This document shows, piece after piece, positions 32,767 through 64,000 of a DNA stretch of 64,000 bases. This DNA is from Tubiluchus corallicola (taxonomy: Eukaryota > Animalia > Priapulida). Below the pieces are notes generated by a model. That model made no database searches, was not told the origin of the DNA, and saw only the letters and a program-made list of their open reading frames with translations. A program made the position numbers and the translations under genes. Within the stretch, counting starts at the first letter, position 1. Each line of letters opens with the position of its first letter. Where the stretch lies: the NCBI GenBank assembly GCA_030141605.1, contig JAQGDQ010000403.1, forward strand, positions 147,069 to 211,068, given 5' to 3'.

Positions 32767-35700
32767 ATGGAAATAGACACAAAGCTATTGGTGTGGATGT
32801 TCTTCTTAATACAGGCACTCACAACAGCACAGGAAGTATCCAGTAAGTATATGTGCTTAAATAAACCTGAAACTCTCAACTTACTGTAGTTAAGAGAACA
32901 TTAGGTTTGGAGATAGGTTTAGGATTTAAACTTTATGCTACAACTACAGTTTCTTTTTCATCAAAAGGTAGTTGGCAGTCTATCAGGCTTAAAGAAAACA
33001 ATAAACTCACAAACTAACATGCTATCTTAGGAAGAAATGGACAGGCCAATGCACAAAGAGGCAAATGTGCTGTAGTGCTAGGAACCTGCATTTGCTGACA
33101 GTCAAACAAGTTGGAAATTTGTTAACTATCTAATTTTCAGTTCATTAATTGAGGTTCAATGTGGTATAGGAACACAAAATTACGTTTATTTATTACGACA
33201 TTTAAACCCTCTTTAAAACTGTTTGGTAGGTTATGTGACTAAATACATCCACTGGGTAACTAGTCCAGTAGAACTTCATAAACAGTTGTCCTATTTGGTC
33301 ATGATGGAAAATAAAGGCTTTACAGAACCACTTACTCGCACAAGACTGAATGCTTAGTTGCATATGCTCCTTAATCTTCAAAATAGTTGTTATGTAACTT
33401 ATGTAAACAACTGGGCAACTGAGTAAATGTGTATTATCACACAGTGTTATATCAGTTACAAAAATATCATAAAATTCACACTGAGGTAGCTTAAGTTAGT
33501 AAAAGGATGTTCTTAGTCATGCTGCAATCTGTATAGTCAATTAGTAAGTAGCTCAGTTGGTCGTACAAACACTAAAATGGTAAAATTCTTTGTACACTGT
33601 TGCCAAAAGTGAGTTTGGATAGCTATATATGAGAAATAAGCACTCATCATATCAAATGAGTGGGGGGGGGGGGCAGTAAAGTTCATTCACTGTTGAAAAC
33701 TTTGTTATTCTGACTGACTAACAGAAGTTATGCAGAAAAAGTGCCTTTTTTTACAATCCTAACAAGTTTCTGTCACTTTTAGAAAAAGATGTAACTTGTA
33801 ATACCGATGACATCCAATTGGATCTGCTTTTCGGGGGGCGGTTTAATGGTATTGTTTATGCAAAGGACTACTTCTCAAGGTCAAGATGTCGACAAGAAGG
33901 AGAAGGTTCCAGAACCATGAGATTCTCTCTAGAATTAAACACGTGTGGTGTTAATGAAGATGTAATGATCTTGAGATATTTTTGTACTTTTTATATTAGC
34001 ACTACACATGTAGAACCAAACTGTTAGAACAGCCAGTAAATAGCTCTCATGAGATTTATGATTATTTGAATATTAATGAAACTTGTGCGAATTCAATGGT
34101 TGATGCTATTCCAACACTTGCTGTTCATTTGAAGCAATTTCTTCTATGATGTCTACATATATTTTGCAGGATGATATTGCTGAAGTTACCATCATTGTAC
34201 AAAAAAATCCTGATGTTATACTTGATGGCGATGAAGCATACCACATTACTTGTGATTATGGCACTCAGGTTGGAGACACCGTGAATTTGAATGTTGGTCT
34301 TCGCCCAAAGTAAGTTCAAATTACCATATACAATCACACAATTGAAGAAGTAACCTAATGAGAATGCAATGTTTTACTGTTTTAAAATATTGTAAGCTAT
34401 GTTTCTTCTACTAAATATGATACTTAATATGTCTGCCTGCAGGAAAATCTGCATTATGTGAAAATCTGAAATCCATACTCTTAAAAGTAAAACTTGTATT
34501 CTATAAACACTTTTGTTTTAATAGCGATTTACCAACAGAATCTCTTGACTCAGCTGCAGAAGAACTAGCTGTAGTCATGAGCATTCTCCCAGACAACGAC
34601 GCGTTTCGCGACGATGAGGTGACTGAAGTGGATGTCGGAGATACTATCGTGCTGGCTGTTGATCTGGTGGACACTGGTAAGTTGCCCTCTACCCATTTCT
34701 AATGCAGAGAAGTGGACTGATTTGATGCTTTGAAATATTTTGGAAAGTGAAAAGGTAATCTAATAAACTCAGTGGAGCTAAGAAAGAAGGTTAAAGGTGT
34801 AGCCACCATTTTTATGTCTGCCTATCTGGCTTTACATTTTCTTCATCTGATAAACAGACTTTGAATTTCAAAGTATTTTTCAGTTCCACTGATCATTTAT
34901 ATCAACAAATTAGGCAGCTGCAAACACAGTGAAGAAAGACCTGGAAAACTAATTCCAAAAATAAATCGGAGAATCTGTTATCAAAAGCACTTTTCACATT
35001 CACACCACAATGATATTTTGGCTAGCAAACAAACATTGAATGGTAAAATTGTAGCTTTCCCAAACATTTTATTAACCAATTTAGTTGGACCAAGCTTCAG
35101 CACATTTCACACATACTGTGAAATTTTGTAATGAATTCAAATTATTTATGATTGCCAACGGTTTTTAGCTGGTCCACACCTTTCATGTCAGTGCTTGGGC
35201 CAGTATGAAAGCTATTTGTTTATTTTAGCAGTCCTTTTGCTGGTGTGTAATATACTATTTATTCTCAAAAATACCTAACTGCAAACACTTTAAAGTAAGC
35301 TCTTAGGAATCTTGCTGTCCACATTTAAACAACTTGACTCTAAACCAGAACTTGAACATCTAAATTGAGTCACAAATTTAACATGTGCTATTGTGTGCAG
35401 AAGGTATTCATGCTTGTAAAATCCTGCCATTTGCTACATGTTCACCAGTGGTTGTGGAAACATGGCAGTGAACAGATCAAATTAGTGAAATTCTGTTGTG
35501 TGGTCCAAAAAATGGAAATAACTTGTCAATATCTTTTCAGAATAAGAGATATTTATATTTCTTTTGAGAAATACTTTTTAAGATTTGCCTAGTCATTTGT
35601 TATGGCACACATGCACATTTTCTGGTTTAGTTCCAAATATCATACATTAAAGCGGATAATAATATTTTTTACTAATATACATTAATAAAGAGGTAATTAA

Positions 35701-38345
35701 TTTTGTTTTAGATGATTATGAGTCATTTCGCTTGTATTCTTGCACTGCAGAAGACAATGATGGAAATGAATTATCACTTGTAGATGACGATGGGTAAGCT
35801 GCCTTCTCAGTTTTTTTAATAAAGAAACATTTTTTCATACCAATTAATACTAGTAGTTCGTACAAGTATTTGTTAGTGTATGTATGTACAGTACAAGGTT
35901 CTACTACAAATTGCTTTATGAATTTCAGTAGCTTCAGAAATTTTTTTGCTGAAAACACTGAATAAACTCATTAACATGGTAGATGCGAATCGTTAACATT
36001 GTGTGAATTAGGCAAATGACTATCAGACTATTGATAAATGATACGGATCACGTTATAGTTAAATATGGCTAATGTTCCTTTTTTGTGCAATTCGGAATCT
36101 TGAGACCGATATCTGATTCAGTACACACCCTCTCTTTACGATGTAAACAGCCATAATCAGCACGGCGAATGAAACAGCCCAGAACGAAAATCGATGTGCC
36201 TCACACATTCAATCACTGATCAATCTGGGGTCCATTCTCAAATAAACTTAAATAGAGAAGCTTTAATTAACTCGTGAACCTAATTAAATGTTCCTAGTCA
36301 TAGAAATATTAATGCCAAGATTAAATCAGTAAAATTGGTTATCATTGCAAAGTGGAATAATTTCACGATTTGTAACGACATCTTTCTCTTATAATTGCCA
36401 GTGTTTAATGTCATTGCAGATGTGTTGAGAGTGACGCCTATGACCAAGACATAGTCAGTACACCAACTGTCCGCCGTAGACAAAATCAAGATGACGAATA
36501 CAGGAAATACTTTGAAATGAAAGCATTCAAATTCCCAGATATGGATCAAGTGACATTTAAATGTGTTGTAACTCAATGTGAACCAGATGATACCAGTTGT
36601 TCATTGGTAAGTAAAATTTCTGTATTACTTGATTTTGTTCTGTACTAGCAGAAGCCTGATGTAGAATACATGGGTACTAATCATTTGAAAAATAAAAAAG
36701 ACAACATTACTGGTAAACTACTACAGAAAAGGTAACTTAGAAAAATTACCTACCTTCAGTAATAAACCACTTATTTTTTGAGCAATCAACTGCCCCTACA
36801 ATTACTTAAAGAAAGTAACTCTTTTTAAAAACAGCTCATCTGTAATGTCTGAGCGACAAACATTTAATACAGCTAACAATTAGGTGTGGAAGCAAAACGA
36901 AAAAAATCACAAATCAATGGAATCATGTATGACAGTTTTATTTTAAAGACACAAAAATCTTTTTGGCTAGAGCAGTAAGTTGTAAGTTACCGTAAAGTAT
37001 TTGTAGTAACTACATATATATTTCATCCAAGGATGTTACCGAAACTGAATTTAGAAACCGAAACCGAAATTTAACAAACATAAGAAATGGATATCGAAAT
37101 GAAACTGAACAGAAACACTTTTGCGAAACCAACTAGTATTAAAACTTAAAAAAGGGAAATTATCGAACCGAAAATTTAGTTTTGGTAACATCCCTGATTT
37201 TATCTAATACGAAAATGACGGATGGTAAAAAATTAAAATCATAAATTTGGCAGCCGGGTAAACAAATTCACAGGGAGAGCTCTACTGCAAAAAAAACAAC
37301 AAAACTAGCATAACTGAACTACTGTTACTGACATTTCCTATATCATTGCAACAGTAACTTACATGTTAATTTACGTCTGAATTCAGCAATGTGATGCTCA
37401 AAGCGACGAACCAGAAAATGTTAGGACTCCTCAGACAGCAAGTAGCAGGAGACGCTTCAAGCGTGGCGTAGAGGAAATAGTAGCGAGAGCCAGTCAAATT
37501 ACAGGTACAACCAAGCGGACCACTCCAACACCGCCTGATGGAAAAACGAGGCTGTTCGGAACGGTTACGGTGAATGCACCACAACTGGAACCCCCTACAA
37601 CAACTGAAAGTGAGTACAATGCTTACAAGATAAATACGATTTCAATCATAAACAAGATTTGACATTAAAGTGGATATTAACAGTATCGTGATGGCCGTGG
37701 CGCCTGTGAAATCATTAACGTTACTTAAAATTTGCTGTTATTTGATATAATCCTGTGAGACTACAAGTCTTTAGTCAAAAAGCTACAGAGCAATGGCAAT
37801 AAATTAAGGTTAAGGCCTGACACATTCTGTGCAGTGTCACACATCAGACATGAAATGAACTGTATCGTGATTTTTCACTATTTATTTCACACGAATGTAT
37901 AGTCCATTTTGTTTTTAAACCCACAAATCACATCTATTGCATATTTCAACTCTCTTTATGTTCATGACACTGTATCAATTTTGAAGTAACATTAGAATGT
38001 GTACATTTTCAACATCTCTTGGAAAGCAAAGCACGTAGTACATGGTAATACAGTAATACTAAGTTTTTATCTCATACAGCACCAGAAGAGGAAGCTGAGA
38101 AGCAACAATACTGTTTTACCGTATCTTATCTGGTGGCGTGTGCATGCATCGTCTTTGGGTTGATCATGATGGCATTTACCGCGTGTCTTTGCTTCTGCGT
38201 CCGCTGGCATCGTGATGCAAAGGCACGTCAGCTCGCCGGGGATAGTCAACAATCAATTCTGAGCACCTCAAGCAGAGTGGACATGACCCGCATACCTCGA
38301 CCGTCTTTGATACAGCGAGATAACAGTGAGCGTCCGCGTATCTGA
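32767..38345 (+). CDS. ZP (zona pellucida)-domain type I membrane protein, cuticlin/dusky-like, 8 coding exons
   Basis: Exons 32767-32842 (signal peptide), 33783-33961 (VTCNTDDI...FNGIVYAKDY...C...CG, ZP-N), 34170-34309, 34525-34676, 35712-35793 (SCTA...LVDDDG), 36420-36606 (C...AFKFPD...FKCVVTQC, ZP-C), 37387-37609 (furin site RRRFKR), 38080-38345 (TM and tail). All GT-AG with consistent phases. Confidence 0.9.
37028..37196. mobile_element. Small hAT-like MITE in a ZP gene intron
   Basis: TIR caaggatgttaccgaaac / gttttggtaacatccctg. TSD atttcatc / attttatc (7/8). Internal gaaacc repeats. Confidence 0.8.
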
Positions 38346-41528: not shown

Positions 41529-44500
41529 TTACACGGACTGCGTAGAAGCCTTGCGACTTTCTGACAACGACGAAACTGATTCATGTGTCTCCTCAAATTC
41601 CTTGCGAATATGTTGAAGTAGGACTGGGTCCGACAAAATTTCAACAGCTGTACATGCCAGAGCCTTTGCAGCAACGATGGTGTATTCCTGAGCTTCATCA
41701 GTTCCAGCTTGATCTTTAAAAGCCTTAGGTAGAAGTTAAAAACATTTCAGTTGATAAATCTACCACTTGACAACTTAAGATGTATAATAATGTGACTAAG
41801 ACACTTCTGCTGATTTACTGGTTCATTCTTGATTATGAGCGAAGTTCCAGTCTCGCCACAATAATCAACGTTAAGCACATTGCTATTAAATGCTAGATTC
41901 CAGCTTGCAGTTTGCTGCAGTTTATAAAAAATCTGAACTACTTCCAAACAAATGACGACGTTGTTTTCAAACAAATGTCACAAACACATACAGTGTTAGA
42001 AACAACTCTAATATTCACAAATCTTGCGAAAAAATTACGTTAAATTTACACAAGTATATGTATTGTCTTCAGAGCTTGAATTATTTCCATTAAATTCTGG
42101 AAATTTATGGACATGGCCTGGTGGATAAAATAAGATTTTGGAACATTGAGCCAGTTCACAATGTAGCTTTGCTGGTATAGACAAATTATATGATAATACA
42201 AAATAAGAAAAAAATCCTTGGCAGATTTGCAAGCCCAAGGTAAAAATATCATTTCCAAACGACAACTTTTTTTATTTATTTTATTTATTTATTATTATTA
42301 TCACATTCAGTACAATATAATGACATTAAGCACACAGTGACATCAAAATCATTACATCATACTGTATTAAATTGTTATGTTTAATACACTATCGTTATTA
42401 TAAAAGAATAATTGTACTGCAGTGGGATTGAGAAGCAAAGGCTTGTATAAGCCCACTGTCATGTGAACCCGATAAAAAAAGAATGGATGAGTGAACAAAA
42501 AATTAAAGAACTGGGAGAAAGGTTAGATCACACAGGAAGGGTAGAAGGATGTGTCAGTGGAAATGGTAGGAAGAAAGACAATAGATTGTGGTATGATGGC
42601 ATCAGCTCTAAAGATTTATCAATGATGCCTTGTTTTGCATAATCTGTACCAGGATTGTGGTATGACTGCTCCAACAGTTGTGGGAAATTAGGAAGTGTTG
42701 TACTTGTTAAAAATCATTGCTCTGTATTTCTTTTTAATTTTTTGAATTGGCTGAACAGTTATTAATTCATCATTTATGTCATTCCAAAGCCTTGGACCAA
42801 CATTTGCAATGAATTGCCGTGCCACGTCTATTCTACAGAAATTCACGACAAACTCCTTCATTCTGGTTGCATAACGCCGATTATTTGGTTGGACTGGATT
42901 ATTAAAGAACGTTGGAAAGAGATTATATTTAGTTTTATACATGCATGTAGCTGTATTCATGCGTATTAAATCGTCAACAGTTAAAATTTTATCAGTTTTA
43001 AAACATTTCACAGTTGCACGGCGCAAATAGTAAAAAACAGCTCTTACTGTGGTGTGGATTTGTGACTCGGTGCCAATGTAAAAAGTCGGATGTATGCTCG
43101 GGACGACCTGCGAGACATTTCCCATGTCAGTTGATCCACCTGGTCGACCTTCAGGAGCAGATATAAACACCGTGCCTGAAGCATTACAGAAACTTGCGAT
43201 ATTAATTCTTGTTCTGTGTTAAGTGGAAATAATACAAAACAAAATGTTGATGATTTATAAGCAGAAACAGCATTTTGAAGTACAAACATTTTATGAATGA
43301 GGTGTGATGGGCAAGCAGACAAAGTGAGGTAGCTACAGCAAGTTTTATTACCACTCACAGCTTCACATTGCATTGTTAACATGCAAGACATGCTCTATTC
43401 ATGTTGAATTGCTTCCTTACCTTGAAAAATCACCAAAGCAAAACAATAAGGTCCAAGCTCAACTTTCATAGAAAGTCATACATATTCAAGTTCACTGAAA
43501 AAACATTTTCTCCAGTTTTATGTGTCTGATACTTGAATATGTATGAGTTTCTACAAAAGTCGAGCTTTGACCTTATTGACTTGTTCTGGTGATTTCCCAA
43601 AATAAGGAAGCAATTCAACATTCACCGTTTCATCTCACCTCATCTACATAAATAAGACCTGAAGTGTCCACTATGTCCTAGCCAGTGAGTCGTTCTGAAA
43701 AAAGCACGAAAGAAAGAAGAGAGAAAAAGGGAGGAAGAGGCAGAGACAGACAGAGAAATGAAAGGGAGTGAGTGACAGAGTTTAATTAGTGGGTATTATT
43801 TACGAACTAGATGTTGTTCATGACATATGTATATACGCCATTCAACTAACTCTAAGAGATACGTAACACAAAACAAATTTCAAACTATAAGAGGCGGGAA
43901 AAGCAATACTAAACTCAGTAATTACCTAGCTCTTCAGCATATTTTTGATATACTGAGGCCATTACAGTATTGTGGTTCATAGACGCATAGCCTTTTGGTG
44001 AAAACTCATATTCAGTTTCGCAGTCAGTTGCCTTCGCTGCACCAATAATACACTGCACAACTCGCTGAGACAACAGCATGAGTTCAGTTTGATTTGGCGC
44101 GCGGACATAGATGAGCATCTCAGTTTCGGCAGGTATAATATTAGGCTTCACTCCTCCATTCGTGATAATAGCTGTCAAGAAATAAAACAGATCAACCAAT
44201 AAGTGAGCAGTTTGATTAAAATAATGTTTACAACACATTTTAGTTACATAAATTACATTATAGAGAAGGGAACTAGATAGATACAATCAATGCAATCAAT
44301 TGAATTGTAACTGTGGATTTCGATTTGAGTCTGATGAACACTTTTTATTGCACTGCCCATTGTATCAACAAACTAGGGTTGTTATGTTTGATAGACTAAA
44401 TGAAATGCTTCTGCCCGAAAACCTTAATATAGCTATCTTAGGAAATAATGATCTGTTGAAGTTGTTATTATTTGGAAAAGATGAATTTAACTATGTTGCA

Positions 44501-47500
44501 AAATGTAAAATATTCCAATGCATACATGACTTTATATTACGTACTAAACGCTTCCAGTAGTTTCTAGCTGATATAAAATGCATCAGTCTTAAATATTCGT
44601 ACATTAATATTTTCTAACCGTCATTTTCTACTAATGTCTAATGTAATCTTGTAGTAAAACTTGTCAGCTTGTGTAGTTACGTCAATTCTTACTGTAAATG
44701 TTACTAATGTCTAATGTAATCTTGCATACTTTGTGATCTTTGATCATTCGTATCGGCCCGGTGCCCAGTAATAAAGTCGCCAGAATAAAGTCACGGAAAA
44801 AGTCACAATTTTGGCTAAGAAAAAAAATCACAATTAATTTTGGCTAGGGTTAGGGTTAGATTTAGGAGTTAATGTTAGAGTTAGGGTTGTGATTAGGGTA
44901 AGAGTTAAGATTAGGCTTATTTCTTTTTTCTGTGCCTTTCTCCTCCGACTTTTTTCCTGTGATTTTTTTTCTGTGACTTTTTTACCTGTGACTTGATTAC
45001 CAGGATTCACAGCCTCAGGCATGAGTTAGGATAGATAATTGAACAAACATTGTAGTATTACAGTTTCATAAAAAGTTCATTAACGAGACAAAATTACTTC
45101 CAAAAGTTCAACATCAGAACTATTGTTATAGGGATGTTGATTCCCCTGGACAGTCCTGTACCAGGTCCGGACTACTGTGAAGCGTCACGACCTAGAGTAT
45201 ATTTACCAAGTTATTTGCATTTCCTTCTTCGTCTAACGATGCTGGTAGCTGATATAAAAACAGTTCAGGCATTAAGAAAAAGAAGCCAAAGAACAGAGAG
45301 AAAAAGCAGGCAGAGTGGAGAGAGCTGTTTTGTCTCTGAGATTTGGCATAAAGTTGAGAATAACTTCGTTGTTATTGTACTTTATTTTGGACTAGCAAAC
45401 AAAGATTTTTTCTCTAGTGAAATGTGTTGAAAAATAAACGAAACCGATTTTTCTCAAGAGTGAGTTCTAAAGTCGTTCCTGTTAGTTTATGACTTTACAC
45501 TTTAAAATCTGACCAAAAGTTATAATAAACAAGAAGCAACAACACTCTGATGCTTCACAAAAATCATTGAACCAGTGACATCTGGTGAACTCCAAGCAAA
45601 CATATAAGCATAAAACCATACTAGTCGTTTTATTTAGGGATTTTGCTCTCGATTAATTGAATTACTATTCAATAGCCGATTATATCAATTTATAGATGGT
45701 TAAAATCTCGAAAAATTCGATTAACCTATTAAATGCCCATCTCTATGCATACCACTGCTATTACTACTTACCATGAATTCTGCACTTGGGCTTCATTTGC
45801 TGTCTTAACAGTGATATGTTATTATAACAGGCTACCGCAGCATCTAGTGCATTTCGTCCATCCCAGGGGGCAGCAGCTGCATGAGCCGCTTTCCCGTGAT
45901 ACTTCACAGTCAACTACACAAGAAATAAAAACTTCAGCAAAATGAAATGAAACGCTTTACATACTCAAAAAGTAGGTGTACAAGAAGTGATTAACTTGAA
46001 AACTTTAGAAAAATTCAGTAATATAAATTACTTTTTACTTTGTAAATGAGAATTGCTTTACCATTGTAGAATAACGGAATTTAACAATAGAAATTTATTT
46101 TCATTCACTTTCTTGTATTGGTATTTTTAGTATTTAGTTTAACATCAAGATTTTTACATATTTAAAAAAATACGATCCAAACCATTTAGATCCGTCTTTT
46201 ATATAAATTAATTATATTACATTTAAAAAGTTTTCATAATAAAACATTTTACAAGACAATATGTGTGACAGACAAGCACAAAAGTTAGGATTTTCTAATT
46301 TAACGTTAAGTTAATAAAACATGCAAATCAATACCACATGCAGTTTTAGTGTTACAAGCATCACTTTCATATACACACATAGGAGAAGATTAAATTAGTA
46401 GTAAATGAAAACCAGTGTTTTGCAAATATAAATTTTATGCAAAACAAAGAAATAAATGAAATTGCTAGCCAGAGAAGATAGACAGCGCTAATCCACATAA
46501 GCAACTAACACAAGCAACTTCTATGCTATTTAAGCTCGAACATTTAACAAACAGTAACAAAGCAATGCATTTGTGGTAGATTGTTGTTCGTTGTTCACAT
46601 GATGCACGCTACCAGCAATAGAAATTACAATCATAACAGTATGTACCTAGGATGGTCATCTTTAACAGATTACATGTACAGTCACCACCATAGCACAAAT
46701 CCAGGCCTAATTTCAAAGCAATTTCCAGCAAAATATTTGAAATTAAACTACCAAAGCAGAAATGGCAAAAGAGCCTCTACTGATTAATCCTGAAAATACA
46801 TTTTATTTTAAACCATGTTTTTTGTTTATAAAAATATTCTAATCATATAAAGTAGTATATAACAAAGAATTTTAATTTAAAAGCTAACCCATTTACAACA
46901 GTGATTTGAGCACAATAGGTACTACATCAGCTATAGCTGCAGAAAACAGTGCAAGCAGCTGGTAACTCCAAATACTAGCAAGGCCTATTATTAATAGTAA
47001 TAAGTTTTAAGTTTGATCCACAACTAAAAATCACACATGATACATGTTGAATCTTATACCTTAAAAAATGTGGCGCATCAGTGGATAGTTGCGAAAATAT
47101 AATTTTTTTCTAACTGCATGCTAGTTATTGCAACATAAATAATTGATAGTTGTGGCTAAAAATAGGTGAAAGTGTTGAATATGTAAGTTTAACTGATGGT
47201 CAGAGTAACTGATAGCTAAAAAAGGTGGTTACAGTCAAATCAATGACTCACACTAATCTGGTTTTACTGAGCATCGGTCTAACATGTTTTTTGGCAAAGC
47301 TTGTCGTCTAATTCTTCAAATTCACATTTAAAAATACATTATACAGTTTATCCTTCAAATCACATCGTTTATCAGTCCAAATATTAAAACAGTTTGCCAG
47401 AGGCAGATAGAACACACTCCAATAAACTATGCATAAATTGACAAAGCCAAATGTTGTTGTACTTTTTCACTAATTCTAAATGTACTTTGCTACCAACTAG

Positions 47501-50500
47501 TTCATTTAGCCTAGTCATTAAATTTATCAATCTCAATCTAAGACAGCAAATTCAGGTAATAAAATACTTATTTCCAAATGGTTGCCTGAAATTTATGCTA
47601 AATGCACGTTAATGGCAGCATTGCAGAATCCAGTAACATTATTATGGATCCCTTAACCAGAAGCTACTGGTGGTATTCATGCACACATGCCATGATTAAA
47701 TGAATATGTTTGCTCCCCCGGATTAAATATTAGTAACTAACTAATAGAAAAAACATAGCCGTAAATATGGTTACAAAAAATCAACCAGCTAATTCAAATG
47801 CTGTTAATTTCCAGTCTTGCACTCACAGCATGCACTGCAAAGGCCAACAAATATTCAAAGCCAGGAAAAATTGCAATAGACCAAAGACATGCATTTCCAA
47901 AATACTTGCCGCAGTTTGGGCCAGATATATACGATCATTGCAATTAAAAGCATAAGGATGAACCATCATTGCAGACTCAACTTCGGAGAAAGCTCCCGCC
48001 ATGAGCAAATCCTTTTTTCCACATCCTCCCTCCTCCGCTGGTGTCCCCAAAACTATCAACTACAATTGTACACACAACACTACATTATGATTACAGATAC
48101 TTTGAATACAGGTGCTTTAAGCATAACTGCAAATACTCACAGGGGAAGTATTTGCACAACGAGGGAAGATAACTGAATTTATCAACCGCTACCAATAATC
48201 CTGCTGAAGACTGGGATGAATTTCAGTACCACTAAGATATGAAACATTTTCCGATCCAGGAATATGCAAGGAGATCCATGAACATCCCGACCACTGTATG
48301 CAACTATGTATTACTAATAATTAGCCGAAAAAAAAACAAAAACAAGGAAATGCTGTCAAACATGATTAAAAGAATGTGCCCAACTCATCAGAGAGAATAT
48401 TATCACGAAGATAACTGATGCAAAGTACAAACAAAGTCGGAGCTAACGCAGATCCTTGCAGAACACCAGGAGGAACATAGTGAACAGTAAAATTCCAGCC
48501 CATCAAAAATGACATGCGGACATCAATAAGAAAAAAATCGATAAGATTAACTTTAGAGATAGTTTGAGTTTCCAATAGTTTGAGTATGAAAAGCAGCCTT
48601 GTGCCAGATCTACCACGTTATCAAAGGTCTCGAAAATATTCAGGGGCATTGCTCTTGGTAACGCTTAGTGCAAGTTAGAGTAGAAATGGACCGATGCAAG
48701 TCACAATTCAATACTCAAATGCTATGAGCTACAAGACAGGTTTTAGTTATGTTTGAATGCAGGTACATGCACTCTTAATGAGAATTAGTAGGTGCTAAAT
48801 GTTAACAAGATTAACACTTACACCCTAGCTTTACAGAGCAGAGATTCCACCCTATTCTACTCAGAGATTATACTCTGGAAATAAATTTTCTGTTAAGGAT
48901 GCTCACAAAACTCTTGTTTCTTGGCTTAAAGTCCCATTAGACAACTTATGACATGAAATGGAACACAATTTCCAGAAAGAAATATTAAATAGTAAACACC
49001 CATTACAGTTTCCAAAGAAAAGACCAATGTTAAAAGTGGATAAAAACCACTGAGCACATAAACTAAGAGAAAAACCTGCAAACGTATGACTAAATAAACA
49101 ATGCAAAAATTAAAACAACTACTATTTTCAAACATGGAAAAAATCTGCCAAAATTATTAATACTAATTCAAAGTTATTTTAACTTTATTTATCTTAATGC
49201 GTCTTCATAGTATTTGAAAACGAAAACTATTGTCACCCCGATAAGCAAGGATTGCATTTTATCATAACTAATTTTTAAAATTCAGTAAAGTAAACAGAAT
49301 TCTGATTAAAATATCTTGTATATAAATTTTAAAATGACAAATAAACAGTAATCTGATTAAAATACCTTAGATATAAATTTTAAAAGGACAAATTACATTT
49401 GTTTACAACGTTTTGCAAGGATTATGTGCTACAATGGTGCTATGTATGCACACATGCATATGGATTGACTGCAAAGTCGTCATAGTCATAGTCAGATGTT
49501 GACTAAGAAGGGGTAGTACTATCAAACAGACATTTGCAGAGCCTTGCGTAAGTCCTTACTTGTAAACAAAAAAACAATTGACTGAGTGGAGTCAGTTGTC
49601 TTATGTGGAAAGCAGACAATAGCATATTTACACCAAAGGCAACTTCACTAAATAAAGACAAGGTATAATGACTGAGCATACAAGGTTAGTAGCAGCAGCA
49701 ACAAGTATATACACTACACAGAAAGTTTACTTATACATGTAAGTAGATATATATATATATATACAAGAGACACAAAATAACAAGCAAATTTTCAAAACAC
49801 TGTCAAATTGCCTTCAAATACTGAGCACAGACCACAGATTCAATTAAATTGCATCCTTGTTTCCATGAAAAGGATACATAAAATACAATAATATTAATTA
49901 GCATCACTGAAATTAAAATTAACATCATAATATAATGAGTATTCATTGTAGACTTGTAATATTCTGTCATTCAGTGCATTGTGAACAAAATTTATGCAAC
50001 AGTTTCGTTTGGAGATACTTTAGCGTCACTTGTGACTCATTCACATTTTTAAATTTTACATTTATTACGAGTTTACGAAAATGGCAGTAATAATCTCAAA
50101 AAGCCATTTTGGGCTGTTGGACTGATATGACAGTGTCACAAGTTAACAGCAGAATAACATCTTCACAGCAAATAACTTAAAGACATAAATGTTTAAAATG
50201 AGCAATTTTTAGCATTCTTATTCATATCAGAATTTCAACTGTTAACAATATAATTGCAGATTTTCACCAGTATGTAATTCTTACTTTCTCATTAGCCAAC
50301 CATAACATATAGGCATCATTACGTGAAAACGGGTGGGACATTAAAGCACAATCCACTCCAACAAAAGCGTCAGCATTAAGTAGATTTATCTTCCCACCCC
50401 CACCTTCTTCTGCCGGCGTGCCTAGAACAAATAACTAACAAAGACTAATACAATGAAATAAATTTACAAGTATTTATTTAGAGTCCAGTCTATTCCAGGA

Positions 50501-53500
50501 AGTGCATCAACAGTGCATGGATCTATCCTATACAACCACCCCCCCTCCCTCCCCCCATAGATCAATCCTCTTCTCCTGTTAATGTGTTTGGAACAAATAA
50601 CTAACAAAAATGTATCAAAATGCAATCTATACATACTCATTTTATTACTTAACAATAGCTGCAAAAGTTCTTGCACATTTTGACCAACGAGACTTGCTCA
50701 CCTACTTCTAAGATACTTTCATGCTACTGAGAAATCAAAAGCATCTTATCTACGAATTTAAAGAAATGTAAATTTATCAAAGGCATACCTTAATTAGTAA
50801 TTATTATTTGTAATTTTAAAACCGACATTACAATTGCTCTATAGTAAAGCACATACAAATAGTAAATAACAATCATCCTACAAACCCAAGGCAGTGAATG
50901 CATGTTCTCCTTTTGTGTAAAGAATGTTCCATTTCTTTAGCAATACTAGTTTGTATGTTTAGCTGTAATGGTAAACTTACACTAACGGAAATGCTGTAAC
51001 TTAAAGATATCTTCACAGACTATCAGAACACCTGCTTTGAAAGAACATTAACACCAGCAGTGTTCATACAGAAGTAAAATACAGTACTTGCTTATTTTTC
51101 ATCGATCTTTTTGGTAGCTGAATTTAGCCTGATGTTCCTCCACGTGTGCATATGCATGCGTATGTATCTATGAGTAGATCGGTGAGTAAACATGTGCAAG
51201 AAAGAGTATCATTAATATAAGTAAACTGAGCAATGTCAAGAAAAGTACATTTTGTGATACAAATTATATGGTGCATTTTCCTGTCTTGGTCTCCCTCACT
51301 CACTAAAACACAATTTAGCAAAAAAATTAATTTTTCAGTCGTGTATTGTTATGTGTGTAGTCTAAACATTTCATTAATTCTATCTTCATGGTAATACAAT
51401 AATATTACAATTGCTAAATGTACAGTAAATGTTGCAACGTGGGTTTGCAAGACAATGTAAGTTTACATGCCAACCCTTCACCTATACATTGTAATTACAA
51501 AATAAAGATAATGTGGTACAATATAGTATAAGTATAGATTACAGTTGAAATTAAACAAATTCTAACAATTATGACACAGTGAATCATCATAGCATATGCT
51601 AGATTAAATAATTCTTTTAACCCTGTAAAATACAATTATACTGATTAAAATCATTAAAGCGGTATTATTGTTCATGATTTGCATTTGTGTTGTCACTTAG
51701 TGTATGATAGGTTCAATGTTAATGGTAAATGGTTATGAAAAACAAATTCATGCAATGTTATTCATCTAGATATGCTAGCCAATGCATGCAATGTTATTAA
51801 TTTAAAACATTTTGGCATCAGTTTTGGTTAAATGTCATCTTTACTAGAAGAGAAAGTTTTTTGAATTGTTGTAACAATAAAGGAATCTAAACACTTTTGA
51901 AAATCAGGCTAAAAGTCAGTTGCTGTACACTTAGTTTCCCATATCAAAGGAGTATGATGAGTTAGCCATAGCATAAGACATTAACAAATAACAATGCAAA
52001 AAAATATATATTCAAAGCAAGTAGCTCAGTAGCATTCTTAGCATTATTCCACTGCAAATCACAAGCATGCATTGTGACATGCTAAGCTTACTTTGTCTCT
52101 AGCCAACAGTGATAAACGAGCATTGCTAAACGAGAATGGGTGAGACATTAGTGCACAGTCCATTCCACGAAAGGCATCACAATTGATTAAATCTACTTTC
52201 CCACCCCCACCTTCTTCTGCCGGCGTGCCTAGAACAAATAACTAACAAAGACTATCAAAATGCATCCACCCGTACGGTGCTACTTAAATAACCAAAGCAT
52301 GCAGACATCATCAAATGATAACTGGTCTGACAACAGATCAAAATTCCTTTCAACTAAAACAACAGCAATGCTTCAATCTAACTTCCCTCTAAAACCTTTC
52401 CTGGTGCCTGTTGAAAAAATAACTAACAAAAAAACCTACCAGCAATGTATCGATCCATAAACAATATGACATCAAGACTTAAAGAGCTAATTCTAAGATG
52501 CTCTCAGGCAGGCAACATCTCAAATATGTTCGAATTGCCTAACATAAATAAGCATTCAATTACAAGGTTCAAGTTTTATGAGTTTTGAGTTGACTGGAAT
52601 ATTTGTCATTAAACTTATGACAGCTGAAACACCAAGAAAAACAAAGAATAATGTTTACAGATGTGACAAACATTGTTGTCAAAATTAACAAAACCGTACG
52701 AATGGTTCAATAATGAAATCAGAGATCCAATGGTCAAGTGCTTGCTGCTAGTCTCATTTGATAATGGTCCGCTTTACAATTATAAGAATACATGTAGACC
52801 CAATGCAAAGCTATAAAGTATAAACCTATCTAGCTATTATAAGCACTTTATCATGTGTTTGATTGTATTGCTGCTCATCCACTTTTACATTCAACTATGC
52901 AAATGTTTAATTAATTTAATTAGTTAATTTAACCAATTAATTGCTCCTAACATGCACTAAAACACACTTTTCTAGGATCAATCTAATACCAGAAATTTAT
53001 GATGAATGTAGTTTGTGCTATGGTGGTGCATTGCAAAATGTCGCGTGCTAGAAAATAAATGTTCATTTGGGACACAATGTGCCCTACCTGGTCAAAAGCA
53101 AGATAAAGATCATTTACAGTAGAAGTCTTAAAAGGATGCACCATCATTGCTGCATCTACAAGACTGAAAGCATCACTAGCAATCATGTCAATTTTGCCAC
53201 CGTATCCCTCTTCATCCGGAGTACCGAAAACCACCAACTTGCAGAAAAAAGCATTGTGAGTCAGTTAGGTATTTTAGTCAGTGTTCTAAGAAAATAAAAC
53301 AATGGGCGAAAGACAAACCTACAGTGAATGGAGGGCGATAGTTTGCGCCAGCATGAAAAATGTGAAGCAAGTAATGATAAAGCATCATGCTAGTATCAGT
53401 ATTAGTTTGCTAACATCTTTATTAATGTTAGTCCTTAATTAACAAGTTTAGTGTTGTAAAATGATTGGTTTGTACATGCCATGCACTATAGATTGAATGG

Positions 53501-56219
53501 TAGATACGTGTTTAATGCATTAAGCTCACTTTTTCATTAGTTAAGTGGGCAACCATTCGTATCATTTATAGAAAATAGATGCATCTTTATGCATAGTCCA
53601 TTTCAAAATTCAGCAAAAGTTTTGTCATCGAATAAATCTATTTTTGCTCCCCACCTTCTTCTGGTGGTCCATCTAGAACAAGTGCAAGACAGATCAACGG
53701 GCAAAACATTAAGTGTTGCTCAGTTAACAACAAACATTTAGTCTTAATAGTCCCAAATAGCATTTAAGTTATGCTGTCAACAAAAGCATTCACATCTAAC
53801 TAATCTCAGGTAACGATACATGAAGTGGCACGTCTTAAAATAAGACCTATCATGCATTAGTGCTGCCTTGCAATGTGCCTATCATTCATTGGTAGTGCTA
53901 TTCATTAGACAAATAGCTAATACAATGTTGAAAGCAAAGGCAGCACTAATGAGTGGTAGGTATGTTGCAAGCGAAGGCAGCACTAATGATTGGCAGGCAT
54001 ATTGCAAGCCTATCATTCATTAGTGCTTCCTTTGCTTACAACATTGAATAAGCTATTTGTCTAAGCTAGTGGAATGAGAGTTGGGAAAAACTAATGCATA
54101 AATGTGTGTGCATTTGTCGTAATTAAGTTGATATAAATATATACAGACAAGAACCTAAATTACTTTATCAAAGCATTTAAACTTGAATGTAGTTCTGGAA
54201 CAACAAACCTTTATTTTTTACTGTTCAGGTTTAAAGCGACAAAAGACATTTTCATACATTTCTAACTAAATGTTTTTGTTTATTTAAATAAATAGTTGAC
54301 TAGGATGTTGACTGGCCTGTTTTGTTGGACTAGGATGGTAAATGTGAAAATTAGATCCGCACTTTTGAAAAAACTTTAAAAACAGACCACACAACTGCCA
54401 AACAACTGCTACGTACAAGAGCAGTGAATCTGCGAAGAAAAAATAAAATACCTATAATTGAAACACCTCACATTCTAATCATTTTTTTACTAAGGCAATT
54501 CCTAGAACCATAATGTTAGTTAAGAAACATATGCAGTTAGGTGGCATTAATCGTAGTTGCAAAAATAACTAACCTAAGCAGCGCAGCAACAAAAAACACT
54601 TCAGCAAAAAACACAATAATTATTATTCCGGCAAGGCTAGTTACTTGCCTCATCCAGGCCCAAATATCTGCGCTGGATTTCTGAAATACCGCCTGGATGA
54701 ACAATCAATGCAACACTTATATTCTCAAAGACCTTGGCATTAATAAAGTCTATTTTACCACCACTAGACTCCTCAGCAGGAGAACCTAAAACTGTGAGCT
54801 ACAAGCAAGAAATCGTCAGTATTAACTAGACAATCAATTGCAGCATTTTTCACATGTGCAGGTATGTCACATTACAAGTAAAAATTCCTACAAACACAAA
54901 AATAGATTCATGTTTTTTGCAACTGACAGCAAAACACAAGAGATAAATCTCATGGATATGCAAAAAAAAATGTGGACGTATTGTGCAGCAATAGGAATTT
55001 GGGTATATTATCTCTTATTGAAAACATTGATTGAACAACAGTTAATATAGCCTAAAAAACCTTATCAATGTTGAGATTGTTAGGATACATCATGTCAACT
55101 AGATGGAAGAAAACTCCTACCCACAGCAAGCAATGAGATAAACAGGCCCACTAATTTGGCACTTAGATAAATTATAGCTTTTATTCTTTATCTTTAAAAA
55201 ACCACAATTTTTCAAAAAATCCAAAATTTTGAAAAATGAAATATTAAATATATAGTGTTCAAATATCTTTAATTGCAGAAGTTCTTTTAACCAATGATTT
55301 GAACACCCGTCCCAAAAACATTTCTTTAACTTTTATCTGTTTCCAGATGCGAAAGGATTGAAAACTACTGCTTTAAATGTCAGTGAAATGTTTTGCATTT
55401 AAATTGTAAGAGGCCTTGCTGATAAATCAAATTTTATACCAAAGTATCATGTTTTCATCAATCACACCATGAATAAATCACAGACAAAATCAATTGTTGC
55501 TGGACAAGGCAACACTAATTTACACAATGGTATTTTTGCTCAAACCTAATTCTAACGCATTAGTGGTTTTCTTTACAGTCTTTACCATAGCTGTCATGTA
55601 AAAGTGTACCTCTGTTAATTCACATTTAACTTTTGTATTGTGGCATTTGCAATTATATATGATATTATTATTTAACAAGAAGAAAATGGAACTATAAAGA
55701 CATCATTGTCTATTGATAAAAACTTAACTGTGAGGAATTTATCTAGTTTAGCAGGAGACTGTAAAAAGCTACTGGATCATTTTGGAGTTTTTAGCGTAAA
55801 GCACTTATTAAACTGTATGTGTATACAATAAATTATAAAAAATAATGTAAAACTACCTTTCCGTTAACTTTGCCAGTTTCTAAAGCAGCTTTAACACCAA
55901 GTGAAGCGGCCAGGCCAGCTTCACAAATTAAGTTATGTCCGCACGCATGCCCAATTTCTGGAAGAGCATCGTATTCACATATAATAGCCACATTCGTCCC
56001 TTCTCCTCTAGAGAATTCAGCACGGAATGCCGTAGGAAGCTTAAATTCTCTGGTAACTTCAAAACCATGCTTTTCAAGAAAATCAGTCACAGCTGCATGA
56101 GCCTTAACTTCTTCAAAACCCAACTCTGGGTTTTCCCATAAATATTTGCTTAAGCTATGCAGCTCCGATCGCTTTTTGTCTATGGCACTAAAAATTGTGT
56201 CACTTGCAGTACTACACAT
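41529..56219 (-). CDS. PM20D2: Peptidase M20 domain-containing 2 (M20D/Acy1L2 metallo-dipeptidase) with an array of alternative second exons
   Basis: Exon 1 56219-55857 ([23 protein letters not shown]); one of five exon-2 copies; exon 3 45913-45772 ([19 protein letters not shown]); exon 4 44171-43926 ([13 protein letters not shown]); exon 5 43175-43048 ([15 protein letters not shown]); exon 6 41723-41529 ([11 protein letters not shown]). Phases 0/0/1/1/0 are consistent. Confidence 0.95.
42270..43010 (-). mobile_element. 3' end of an L2/Crack/CR1-group LINE in PM20D2 intron 5
   Basis: [19 protein letters not shown]...YATR...[11 protein letters not shown] is a typical ORF2 C-terminus. (AATA)n-like tail at ~42270-42300. 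Confidence 0.7.
43401..43621. mobile_element. Foldback/MITE with ~90-bp imperfect inverted arms
   Basis: atgttgaattgcttcctta...catacatattcaagt (43401-43491) versus acttgaatatgtatga...taaggaagcaattcaacat (43531-43621). Confidence 0.85.
44300..44560 (+). mobile_element. LINE ORF2 C-terminal fragment (CCHC-like end)
   Basis: CNCG...[13 protein letters not shown]...LLFG...FILRTKRF, typical of non-LTR ORF2 termini. Confidence 0.7.
44757..45010. mobile_element. MITE-like element with aaagtcac/gtgacttt subterminal repeats and an internal TTAGGG-like tract
   Basis: aataaagtcac repeats on the left, gtgacttttt repeats on the right, tagggttagggttag in the middle. Confidence 0.6.
47910..48059 (-). CDS. 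PM20D2: PM20D2 alternative exon 2e (150 nt, GC donor)
   Basis: TAG|[50 protein letters not shown]|GCAAGT. Confidence 0.9.
48370..48680 (-). mobile_element. Degraded non-LTR reverse transcriptase fragment
   Basis: [13 protein letters not shown] (GVPQGS motif) and an upstream FETFDNV (AFD motif remnant). Confidence 0.6.
50285..50434 (-). CDS. PM20D2: PM20D2 alternative exon 2d (150 nt)
   Basis: TAG|[50 protein letters not shown]|GTAAGA. Confidence 0.92.
52092..52241 (-). CDS. PM20D2: PM20D2 alternative exon 2c (150 nt)
   Basis: TAG|[50 protein letters not shown]|GTAAGC. Confidence 0.92.
53088..53237 (-). CDS. PM20D2: PM20D2 alternative exon 2b (150 nt)
   Basis: AAG|[50 protein letters not shown]|GTAGGG. 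Confidence 0.9.
53530..53685 (-). pseudogene. Decayed PM20D2 exon-2 copy (pseudoexon)
   Basis: [11 protein letters not shown]/(frameshift)[14 protein letters not shown]...MHLFSIND, with stop codons. The GTGAG donor is kept and no AG acceptor sits at the expected position. Confidence 0.8.
53846..54064. repeat. Complex inverted-repeat cluster between exon 2a and exon 2b
   Basis: 53905-53960 pairs with 54009-54064 (~56-bp arms). The unit cctatcattcattagtgctgcctt occurs in both orientations. Confidence 0.85.
54649..54798 (-). CDS. PM20D2: PM20D2 alternative exon 2a (150 nt, GC donor)
   Basis: TAG|[50 protein letters not shown]|GCAAGT. Confidence 0.88.
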
Positions 56220-59590: not shown

Positions 59591-59926
59591 GACATACTTG
59601 TTGTGGCCATTTTAATGACAAAGGTATATTATGCATTTTTAGTTTGGATGAATTTTGTAGTAATAATAAGCTCACCAGTTGTATCCGACAAAAAAAACGC
59701 CTTTATGTATATACCTGTATAATTTTCCTTTTTGTACTTGCCAATGTATGTAATGTTATTTGCACAGTTGCACTCTACAGAAGAGAGAATAGCAAAACAG
59801 CGATAACAAATAAAACAGCGATAGCAAATAAAACTGATTGAATCGAAAAAAAATAACGTGGACCAAAGACATGGTGGAAATAAAGACTGCGTCGAGCAAC
59901 TCAAGTTGTCGACAAAATTGAATAAA

Positions 59927-61204
59927 ATGGCTGAACACGTGAAATCTAGGAAAGCAAAAGTAAAAATTTCGAAAAATAAAAAGAAAGGCTGGCGAAAGCA
60001 TGCAGATATTAGTGACGTAGAACAACACTTAGAAGATAGGCGCCAAGAGGAACGTGCCGGTGGGTTAGTATCTGAGAAGCCTGATAGTAGTCTGTTTTTC
60101 ATCGAAAAGTCTGCATCAAAAAACGTCGAAAAGCCACGAAAAACAGAAAAACTTAAAGATATCAAGTTGAAGTGTTTTTCTAACTTGGAGCCTGACCCAA
60201 GAGTTAAACCAGGTTATCTAGGTCGTTTTAAACAGACTGCTACATTGAAACAAAAAGTGGAACATACGCAATGTAAAAATCGCTTGTACAAAAACTCGAA
60301 AGAGAGACGAGGAAGAAGAAACAAGGCAAAGTCACCACCTAGGTCAGTAATTTATGATATATGGGGGGCACCAGAACAGATTCCTGATGTTGCCGCAGTT
60401 CAGAAATTAGAGGAGTTTTATGCTATATCTACGAAACGAAAATTGCCTGCTCCTCCAGATCATCTCAAAACTAAACCATCGAAGTTGGCAGCAGTGATTG
60501 TTCCGCATGCAGGTGCATCTTACAATCCTGCATATGATGATCATCAGGAATTACTCAGGCAGGCTGTGAACTTAGAAGAAGAAAAAATTAAAATCACTGC
60601 CAAAATTGATAGAGCCACCACAGAAATGTTTCCTACAAAAGACGAAGCACCAACAGAAGAAACATGGCTTCGTGAAATGTCGGAAGGGCTTAACAGTGCA
60701 GGGAAGGAAACAACAACCAAGTGCATTGATCAAGAGGACTTTTTTATTCCAGCAGTGAAAAAGAATGAACGTAAACCCAAGAAAAAGCGAAATATGGAGA
60801 TTAAAGAAAAGGCTCTGGGTAGTTTGAAAGCTAAACTAAAAGAAGAAAGGGTGAGAAAAAATGCCATCTACAATCTTAGATCAATAAAAAAAGAAATATT
60901 TCAAGAAGAAAGAACAAAACAGGAAAGACAGAACAGAAAAGCTCAAAAGCAGCTGGCAAAAATTAATGACCCAAAGCGCATTGGCCGAATGAAATATCGG
61001 GATCCAGAATTAGAAGTTAAATTGAGTAGTGAATTGGTTGGATCACTGCGACAGCTAAAGCCAGAAAGTAGTTTACTTGAGGACAGATTTAAAAGTTTGC
61101 AAAAGCGATCAATTATTGAACCTCGAGAACGTAGTTCAATAGTTAGAAAATATAAACGGAAGACGTACGAAAAGGCAAGCCACAAGAGTGTAACAGTAAG
61201 TTAG
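59927..61204 (+). CDS. NOP53: Ribosome biogenesis protein NOP53 (GLTSCR2/PICT1), intronless
   Basis: SKNKKKGWRK...D, LFFIEK (AIM-like), YDIW, PHAGASYNP, ELVGSLRQLKPE..LLEDRFKSLQKR.IIEPR. First ATG at 59927; the ORF track starts at an upstream GTG (59858). Confidence 0.95.
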   Translation: MAEHVKSRKAKVKISKNKKKGWRKHADISDVEQHLEDRRQEERAGGLVSEKPDSSLFFIEKSASKNVEKPRKTEKLKDIKLKCFSNLEPDPRVKPGYLGRFKQTATLKQKVEHTQCKNRLYKNSKERRGRRNKAKSPPRSVIYDIWGAPEQIPDVAAVQKLEEFYAISTKRKLPAPPDHLKTKPSKLAAVIVPHAGASYNPAYDDHQELLRQAVNLEEEKIKITAKIDRATTEMFPTKDEAPTEETWLREMSEGLNSAGKETTTKCIDQEDFFIPAVKKNERKPKKKRNMEIKEKALGSLKAKLKEERVRKNAIYNLRSIKKEIFQEERTKQERQNRKAQKQLAKINDPKRIGRMKYRDPELEVKLSSELVGSLRQLKPESSLLEDRFKSLQKRSIIEPRERSSIVRKYKRKTYEKASHKSVTVS

Positions 61205-62200: not shown

Positions 62201-63337
62201 TTAGGTTTGCTCCCGGCCATCGCCATTAGCCATTTTTGAACATGATCGGCAAAATTCCAGGGACACGTTGCTGTTTTCGACATGAAGACAAATTCCTCCA
62301 CCAATGAGTGTCTTACTATTAACACGCTTTGAAGCTGGCTCGCTGGAACAAAGAGAATCATTCACGCGTTTCCGACTTACTTCAAATGACGTACTTAAAG
62401 CAGTTTTACTTGCACTCACTGACTGCAGAACAGAAGATAAAGCACTGTCATTGGCAATCACATTTTTCAAGTATAAAATTTCCTCCCGGAGTGAATCTAT
62501 TGTCTTTTTAGATGCTTCGAGTTCTGAACACAACTTACTGTTTTTATCGGATAACTCCTTGACATTGTTTTCTAAACCAGTGATGTATGCTTTTTTTCTT
62601 TCACGGTTAATTTTTGCTTGGATGGCATTTCTCTTGTTTCTGTCTGTGACATTTGCTAAAGTAGTGTTGTCATCATCTGCATCTGTGTCGTCAGTACTAT
62701 ATTTGTTTGTTTGTGTTGTTTGCTGCACATCTTGCTTTTTTGACTTGCTTGCTGGTGTTTTGGTAGTTCTAGTTTTCAGTGAAGCTGTTTTAGTGGTCCT
62801 TCTGCTCCCTGTTTTCTGATTAGAATTATTTGGCATTTGAACAGTTTCCTTGGCAAAAACTGAACTGCTACTGAAAAGACTTACAGCTGCGACTCCTGTT
62901 TCTGTTTCAACAGCAGGAACAACATCCTCTGCTTCAGTACTTTCTAAAATTGGGAGAACAATCTCCTTGCCTTGTTGAACTTGTTTCTTTTCAATCTCTG
63001 GTGACTCGGGCCGATCTAAGCATGCAAGGTCTTTATCACCAATTGTTATGGCAACATCATTTGCAGTCAGGTCATCAGTTAAGTCATTGTCAGCATCTGG
63101 AACATTCAGTAACGCTTCTATAAGGCTTCCAAAATCTCCATCATCTGTAGCTAATGACTCAAGATAAGCTGGTTCGACTGAGTATTTGTCAAGATCACTC
63201 ACAGCAGTGTAACTATATTGCTGAGCTTGAGCACTGCTGTACTGCGGTGGCTGATATTGATACAACTGTGTGTATGATGGAGCTGATTCAAGATCTGGAG
63301 TGTTCATTAGATCTGGGTATTCAGTGGGCTTTGCCAT
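62201..63337 (-). CDS. CREBZF: CREB/ATF bZIP transcription factor, CREBZF (Zhangfei)-like, single exon
   Basis: Basic region RNAIQAKINRERKKAYITGLE plus leucine zipper. The C-terminal GGICLHV...VSLEFCRSC motif is characteristic of CREBZF. ATG at 63337. Confidence 0.85.
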   Translation of the reverse strand: MAKPTEYPDLMNTPDLESAPSYTQLYQYQPPQYSSAQAQQYSYTAVSDLDKYSVEPAYLESLATDDGDFGSLIEALLNVPDADNDLTDDLTANDVAITIGDKDLACLDRPESPEIEKKQVQQGKEIVLPILESTEAEDVVPAVETETGVAAVSLFSSSSVFAKETVQMPNNSNQKTGSRRTTKTASLKTRTTKTPASKSKKQDVQQTTQTNKYSTDDTDADDDNTTLANVTDRNKRNAIQAKINRERKKAYITGLENNVKELSDKNSKLCSELEASKKTIDSLREEILYLKNVIANDSALSSVLQSVSASKTALSTSFEVSRKRVNDSLCSSEPASKRVNSKTLIGGGICLHVENSNVSLEFCRSCSKMANGDGREQT

Positions 63338-64000
63338 AATCAACAGCCTAGTTTAAATGTAAACTTTGAATGCGTGCATCATTTTGTTGAAATTTTGTCA
63401 AATGGAAAGTTACCACAATATAATCCATGGCATTACCAGCCACTGTAAACCTAAAAAAAACAGAAAAACTGTGAACATAAAAACTCAACTTTGTAGAAAA
63501 AATGGCAGTAACTTCTGTTATGCATTATTCGCTAACAACTGGATTCATATACGTGAAACCGCTTGCAAAATACAAAACAAATATATACACGTCACATGTT
63601 TATACTAATAATACTATACTAATAAAGGCTGTGGAGTCGGAGTCGGCAGTAAATCTATTCCCGTGTGCGTATACATATATACATACACATACATATATAT
63701 ATCAGTCTAACCTCGTTATCGCGCCACTGTCCGTCTAGGGCAAATTTTTGGCGAGAGGCGAGTATGGCGAGATAACGGGAATATAACGAAGTTAGTCTAT
63801 ATGTATATACATACTGTACATAATAGTTGATTAACATAGCGTTCCTCTATGTACATATAAAATATATTTCGCATTATGATACCAATCAGCATTAAATCAG
63901 AAATGAAAAAATGTCATAAAAATAATCTTAGAATGTTACTTTTTTATTTAAAAAACCTTTTTCGAGTATACACTTAAATGCAATAAACTTAGCAAAAGAT

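Follow-up and report, generated by a model that had tools for sequence, protein, structure and literature searches.

A candidate downstream docking site with partners behind two alternative exons in a PM20D2 gene of the priapulid Tubiluchus corallicola

Control of exon choice by pairing between a docking site and selector sequences has been tested mainly in arthropods and in a few human genes (PMC6191721). Among the closest described systems is exon 5 of Drosophila 14-3-3zeta, in which one docking site (IEa) lies after the whole cluster of variable exons, selectors (IE1 and IE2) lie downstream of individual exons, and pairing with the site is competitive (PMC4174434, PMC6071210). Insect Mhc and MRP1, which have right-hand docking sites, also carry the site in the intron that follows their last variable exon, in clusters of at least three duplicated exons (PMC6071210). 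A similar layout was found in a stretch of 64,000 nucleotides (nt) from Tubiluchus corallicola (assembly GCA_030141605.1, contig JAQGDQ010000403.1, forward-strand positions 147,069 to 211,068), referred to below as the window, in which the minus strand carries a gene for the M20 dipeptidase PM20D2. Exon 2 of this gene is present as five tandem copies, 2a to 2e, and a sequence in the intron following the last copy, named D1 here, is complementary to sequence behind 2b and also to sequence behind 2d. We consider it fairly probable that D1 is a docking site and that exon 2 choice is controlled by the downstream docking-site/selector mechanism of the 14-3-3zeta, Mhc and MRP1 class. The mechanism itself is not new.

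The identity of the gene was established by homology, its homologues being named PM20D2 or xaa-Arg dipeptidase. Exon 1 was 67% and exon 4 was 56% identical to PM20D2 of Priapulus caudatus, the value for exon 3 being given in Table 1, and the Priapulus protein in turn matched the PDB entry 7YH4, ‘Xaa-Arg dipeptidase’, with an E-value of 2e-101. The five exon 2 copies are all 150 nt long and of phase 0/0, and have 20 to 35 of their 50 residues in common.

An earlier note on this DNA had pointed to 53012-53028, about 60 nt past the exon 2b donor, as the exact reverse complement of 46683-46699, and both the complementarity and the placement were confirmed, the arm starting 59 nt after the donor. 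The inverted-repeat scan against shuffled controls that the note had proposed was performed on 45913-55857 and returned this 17-mer as the longest perfect inverted match of the region; the runners-up were of 15, 15 and 14 nt, within one local foldback at 53.85-54.06 kb, and the rest did not exceed 12 nt. Over the whole window, the only longer perfect inverted matches were two local hairpin arms, and a single AT-rich 17-mer pair was also present, with its arms 43 kb apart. No other copy of either arm was found within the window, homology does not extend past the arms, and no target-site duplication of 2-10 nt was found beside them. When a minimum distance of 60 nt between the arms was required, perfect matches of at least 17 nt arose in 71 of 3852 dinucleotide shuffles of the global type and in 69 of 4064 of the block type, so that the chance estimate of the note (below 0.01) was slightly optimistic, the actual frequency being about 1.8%. 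By itself, the 17-mer is suggestive, not decisive.

The site with two partners is a better signal than the 17-mer alone. An imperfect second partner of the same site, which the note had placed downstream of 2d, proved to be real and stronger than had been claimed, 49419-49439 forming its 20 pairs with 46683-46702 at -29.2 kcal/mol on the transcribed (minus) strand, compared to -23.6 on the plus strand. At each of the three core positions where the two selectors differ, the 2d selector forms a G-U pair with D1 on the transcript and is mismatched on the other strand, and it gains five pairs with D1 that are absent from the 2b selector. The two partners overlap on the same stretch of at least 15 bases of D1. 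When the transcribed strand was scanned with D1, the two best partners were those behind 2d and 2b, each of which surpassed all 60 shuffles of its own intron. With D1 held fixed, shuffling the remaining sequence 274 times gave an equally strong second partner twice. In a version with no preselected site, a last-intron site that pairs with two separate inter-exon introns was matched in 3 of 1043 shuffles, the summed energy of the five top duplexes in 15 of 1043, and an ungapped, whole-region search for two partners in 4 of 429; gapped duplex energies, which allowed bulges and 1x1 loops, came from our own approximate model.

Several results weigh against this interpretation. As a single duplex, the best ungapped helix was equalled in energy in 15 of 429 shuffles, and the best gapped one in 115 of 1043. 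The plus strand gave a two-partner score of -63.3, obtained via 51577-51601, a warning that the shuffles may be too lenient a null. Among 26 strand scans of 13 other 10-kb tiles of the window, seven contained an equally strong helix, of which five were triplet repeats, one was a low-complexity run and one was a complex long-range pair (903-925 with 5782-5804; 23 nt, 4.9 kb apart, -33.9 on the minus strand); the two-partner score was attained in six of the 26 scans, always in tiles with a simple or low-complexity top helix. The predicted accessibility of D1 falls below that of its surroundings (mean unpaired 0.28 compared to 0.37). Finally, no partner of D1 above chance was found behind 2a (38 of 60 shuffles as good) or behind 2c (49 of 60), and the one behind 2e was weak (7 of 60).

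The alternative that best survives, and that we nonetheless consider unlikely, is that the complementarity is due to chance or to remnants of small dispersed repeats, with both arms unselected and the exon chosen through splice-site strength and protein regulators. A shuffle frequency of 1.8% can be reached in a large scan, and the complex helix elsewhere in the window, the plus-strand score and the two exons of five that lack a partner all fit such an origin. Known docking-site clusters, it is to be noted, also include incomplete selector sets. Against this alternative stand the rarity of two strong partners on one site (the 3 of 1043 shuffles above), the selector differences that are G-U-compatible on the transcribed strand, the confinement of the signal to the downstream intron, the homology that stops at the arms and the lack of any further copy in the 64 kb.

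From the observed anatomy, positions, complementarity and shuffle statistics, we infer pairing in vivo, an effect on splicing and mutual exclusion in Tubiluchus, as follows. D1 would pair with the intron sequence behind 2b or behind 2d and, with the exons beyond the paired selector looped out, the joining of that selector's own exon to exon 3 would be favoured. As D1 would hold one selector at a time, 2b and 2d would be competitors. Through pairing, the effective distance to exon 3 would fall from 7174 to 829 nt for 2b, and from 4371 to 1614 nt for 2d. Exon 2e would probably be the default, used when D1 is free or held by the weak partner of 2e, and 2c may use a second site, D2. For exon 2a no partner is predicted; its control would have to come from weak splice sites or a protein repressor, and the same would apply to the skipping of exons upstream of the chosen one, a gap of which Dscam exon 6 offers the mirror image (PMC6071210). 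In this way, the dipeptidase would be made with one of five alternative active-site segments. The docking-site reading put forward in the earlier note is probably sound in outline and covers part of the cluster, the D1 partners and shuffle statistics in its favour concerning 2b and 2d; behind 2a and 2c D1 has no partner above chance, and behind 2e a weak one.

Exclusion by other known means was also considered. Decay of doubly spliced transcripts through a shift in frame was rejected, all copies being of phase 0/0, as was the use of U12 splice sites, since the donors of all variable exons are GT or GC and of the U2 type. Exclusion of the OGDH type depends on a branch point close to the upstream donor, followed by an extended stretch free of AG up to the acceptor (PMC7969005). 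Such steric exclusion by distant branch points is unlikely here, because the AG-free zones ahead of the 2a-2e acceptors are only 20-55 nt long and the nearest intact exon 2 copies are separated by more than 800 nt. The premise of the note that neither frame nor spacing can enforce exclusion is thus upheld; the need for strict exclusion that it presupposes is not demonstrated, as a Priapulus gene model described below contains both copies.

For the remaining exons, further elements were predicted (Table 1). The element behind 2e resembles the selector region of 2d (83% over 30 columns), and when the 2d and 2e introns are aligned locally, it is this selector element that gives the best match, equalled in 10 of 150 shuffles. 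Silent differences at codons for shared residues amount to 16 of 24 between 2b and 2d and to 22 of 25 between 2d and 2e, i.e., near saturation, and neutral similarity between the introns is therefore expected to have been lost; the islands of similarity between the 2d and 2e introns suggest selection. An unbiased scan of the intron between 2e and exon 3 yielded five duplexes of -26 kcal/mol or stronger, compared to 0, 0 and 2 in three shuffles. Two of the five are the D1 helices with the 2b and 2d selectors, and three are new. The candidate 2c selector pairs with D2 at -27.1 kcal/mol on the minus and -16.1 on the plus strand, an outer stem predicted around the 2d selector/D1 helix reaches -26.3 kcal/mol, and a stem predicted to enclose 2e reaches -29.3 kcal/mol on the minus and -20.1 on the plus strand. 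All three, i.e., the 2c/D2 pair, the outer 2d stem and the stem around 2e, are borderline. The 3' arm of the 2e stem (47809-47830) has a further possible partner inside the coding sequence of exon 2b (53148-53169), at -28.

Some other candidates were tried and set aside. The segment 54314-54346 was not above chance as a 2a selector (18 of 60 shuffles). The possibility that 51577-51601 is a decayed same-sense copy of the docking site was rejected, as it pairs on the plus strand only and its same-sense alignment was not significant. When three selectors and the dock were folded together as a mini-construct, all pairing fell on 2b; this result was not used, since the linkers were artificial. A single metagenome match to the 20-nt docking site was taken as chance, the contig having 52% GC and bacterial-looking frames; against exon 2, the same contig gave one unconvincing match of 14 residues (E 0.005). 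For an upstream dock in intron 1, the best duplex was -22.8, compared to -23.7 to -24.5 in three shuffles, and no common site emerged. A 13-nt sequence of intron 1 (55500-55512) can base-pair with the GC donor of 2a (54645-54657) at -24.1, a value that shuffles also reach.

A fuller scheme can be proposed tentatively, and we would not rely on it at present. It consists of a two-dock switchboard (D1 for 2b, 2d and 2e; D2 for 2c), with the outer 2d stem nested around its helix and a stem hiding 2e, that would choose one of five active-site exons, together with independent duplication of this exon in priapulids, scallops and a spider and a convergent change of alanine to aspartate beside the catalytic glutamates, in one variant each of the window and of the scallops.

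The exchange of exon 2 in relatives was assessed in NCBI predicted models. Isoforms identical outside exon 2 were found in Priapulus (2), Argopecten (3), Mizuhopecten (3), Ylistrum (2) and Pecten (2), and PM20D2 of the spider Parasteatoda has two isoforms that exchange the same exon and otherwise differ at few residues. In Haliotis, Patella and Acanthaster, the isoform pairs examined differ outside exon 2. In the four scallops, each isoform has one exon 2 copy. Two models speak against strict exclusion: Priapulus isoform X1 joins both exon copies in frame, and one Parasteatoda isoform is without any copy of exon 2.

These models bear on a second alternative, namely that the pairings are real and selected, and serve to tune exon ratios, shorten long introns or promote skipping, with no strict exclusion. 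Besides Priapulus X1, this is favored by the phase of the copies, through which double inclusion escapes decay, and by the further predicted stems, which suggest a tuning network. Two copies in tandem would, however, repeat the invariant E-E and H segment and should disturb the fold, and the single copy in each isoform of the four scallops also weighs against it; we regard this alternative as improbable. As for the arms being the terminal inverted repeats of an old DNA transposon 6.3 kb in length, or flanks that promote back-splicing of 2c-2e into a circular RNA, the 17-mer is indeed perfect on both strands (-32.1 and -32.0) and starts with CAC on the plus strand, and complementary flanks do favor circular RNAs, but a repeat of 17 base pairs (bp) is short for that role, the interior consists of three intact exons with no transposase-like frame, target-site duplications, and other copies within the window, are missing as stated above, and terminal repeats would not be expected to offer one of their arms a second partner, all of which makes this origin highly improbable.

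Exon 2 contains the invariant G-x-P-x-E-E and H-P residues of the protein, and its last 15 residues are highly variable, as judged from 232 homologous segments. From M20 chemistry, we take the invariant residues to be catalytic and metal-binding, and the variable part to be a loop near the substrate pocket. In a tree of 41 exon 2 segments over 51 columns, the five window exons cluster with the two Priapulus variants (support 95/75), 2a pairs with the upstream Priapulus variant (96/76), and the scallop variants form clades of their own, separate from the priapulid ones. The motif P-D-E-E occurred in only 5 of 237 homologue motifs, four of them in alternative exons of scallops and the fifth in an unnamed protein, and exon 2b of the window, with its GTPDEE, does not cluster with the scallop variants; this rarity suggests that the change of alanine to aspartate in 2b and in the scallop variants is a convergence.

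Remains of additional copies were seen in the cluster. Decayed exon 2 copies precede 2b (53530-53685), 2c (52290-52430) and 2d (50500-50610). For 2c and 2d, fragments with the acceptor of these exons lie about 180 nt ahead, and the AG acceptor context kept there could act as a decoy. The intact 2c and 2d have 39 identical bases across the acceptor (52211-52249 and 50404-50442), yet 12 of 34 codons for shared residues are silently different; gene conversion or a shared regulatory element are the explanations suggested.

Table 1. Features of the Tubiluchus PM20D2 exon 2 cluster, in the order of transcription (positions are those of the window).
Feature	Position	Strand	Remark
PM20D2 exon 1, coding part	55857..56219	-	homology
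Variable exon 2a	54649..54798	-	150 nt, GC donor
Decayed exon 2 copy	53530..53685	-	stop and frameshift; nhmmer E 1.4e-7
Variable exon 2b	53088..53237	-	150 nt; GTPDEE replaces GTPAEE
Candidate selector for 2b	53012..53028	-	17 Watson-Crick pairs with D1
Variable exon 2c	52092..52241	-	150 nt
Candidate selector for 2c	51135..51154	-	predicted D2 partner, approximately collinear with 2d selector; borderline
Variable exon 2d	50285..50434	-	150 nt
5' arm, predicted outer stem nested around 2d selector/D1 helix	49591..49609	-	borderline
Candidate selector for 2d	49419..49439	-	20 pairs with D1, three G-U, one bulge
5' arm, predicted stem enclosing 2e	48719..48740	-	duplex energy
Variable exon 2e, last of cluster	47910..48059	-	150 nt, GC donor
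3' arm, predicted stem enclosing 2e	47812..47832	-	duplex energy
Element behind 2e	47663..47690	-	resembles 2d selector region; weak 12-bp D1 partner
Candidate downstream docking site D1	46683..46702	-	1207 nt after 2e donor, 770 nt before exon 3
3' arm, predicted outer stem for 2d	46492..46509	-	borderline
Candidate second docking site D2	46368..46387	-	partner of 51135-51154; borderline, low complexity
Constitutive exon 3	45772..45913	-	79% identity to Priapulus PM20D2

Other elements of the gene and its neighborhood are recorded here. A multi-arm foldback in the intron after 2a (53840-54070; -96.6 kcal/mol, z -8.8) may be an element like a miniature inverted-repeat transposable element (MITE) or a small-RNA precursor, and a 16-nt motif related to it lies in intron 1 (55504-55519). 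A search of Rfam over 41-57 kb returned five matches, all to one hairpin and below their gathering scores, the foldback carrying these sub-threshold miRNA-hairpin matches. An inverted repeat in a later PM20D2 intron (43401-43621; 91-nt arms, 86%) is probably a MITE. Upstream of PM20D2 are two uninterrupted frames, one for NOP53 (59825-61204, plus strand; Pfam E 1e-82) and one for a bZIP protein (62201-63352, minus strand). For NOP53, Priapulus gave the highest full-length identity (43%) and a chiton slightly more bits, and a metagenome scan with the NOP53 protein gave 73 pattern matches, none of which was confirmed. An open frame of 561 codons (16853-18538, minus strand) encodes about twelve tandem repeats of 12 residues followed by a hydrophobic segment, and by eye we take it to resemble peptidylglycine hydroxylating monooxygenase. 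From motifs, also by eye, 6330-6713 (plus strand) is presumably a PP1 inhibitor-3-like frame, and 33722-38345 (plus strand) presumably holds exons of a ZP/cuticlin-like gene.

Among the matches listed for PM20D2 or M20 peptidases, for Priapulus splicing and for RNA structure by taxon, no description of the PM20D2 exon 2 cluster was found in the literature, and the cluster points to an apparently undescribed means of varying the PM20D2 substrate pocket. A metabolic enzyme of a priapulid would widen the range of docking-site/selector pairing, and the two-dock arrangement, if true, would extend competing-pairing control to Scalidophora and provide a natural replicate for the question whether exon duplication itself breeds docking sites and selectors. 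The same exon is alternative in at least three animal lineages, with scallop copies of separate origin, so that the Ivanov-Pervouchine idea, in which duplication of one stem arm reportedly creates such splicing switches, could be tested directly on this gene.

Overall, in the comparison with known systems, the layout predicted for PM20D2 resembles that of 14-3-3zeta in the single site after the cluster, the competing selectors behind individual exons and the probable duplication of selectors along with exons. It differs in belonging to another gene and phylum, in having five exons and a pseudo-exon instead of three exons, in its spans of 2.7-6.3 kb, and in having two exons without a D1 partner; the 14-3-3zeta pairing is backed by conservation and mutational tests. 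PM20D2 has no homology to Mhc and MRP1, and possibly has two docks in one intron and a stem around the last exon, both predicted and borderline. The bidirectional pairing described for srp and for Dscam exons 4 and 9 (PMC4691838) matches PM20D2 in its downstream half, whereas no upstream dock was found in PM20D2 intron 1. Dscam1 exon 6 also has selectors that compete for one site, but in the opposite polarity, the site being upstream and a selector preceding each exon (PMC6071210, PMC6191721). The PM20D2 genes of Priapulus caudatus, the four scallops and Parasteatoda exchange the same 50-residue exon between isoforms; they have two or three variants of it, compared to five in Tubiluchus, and those of the scallops form their own clades.

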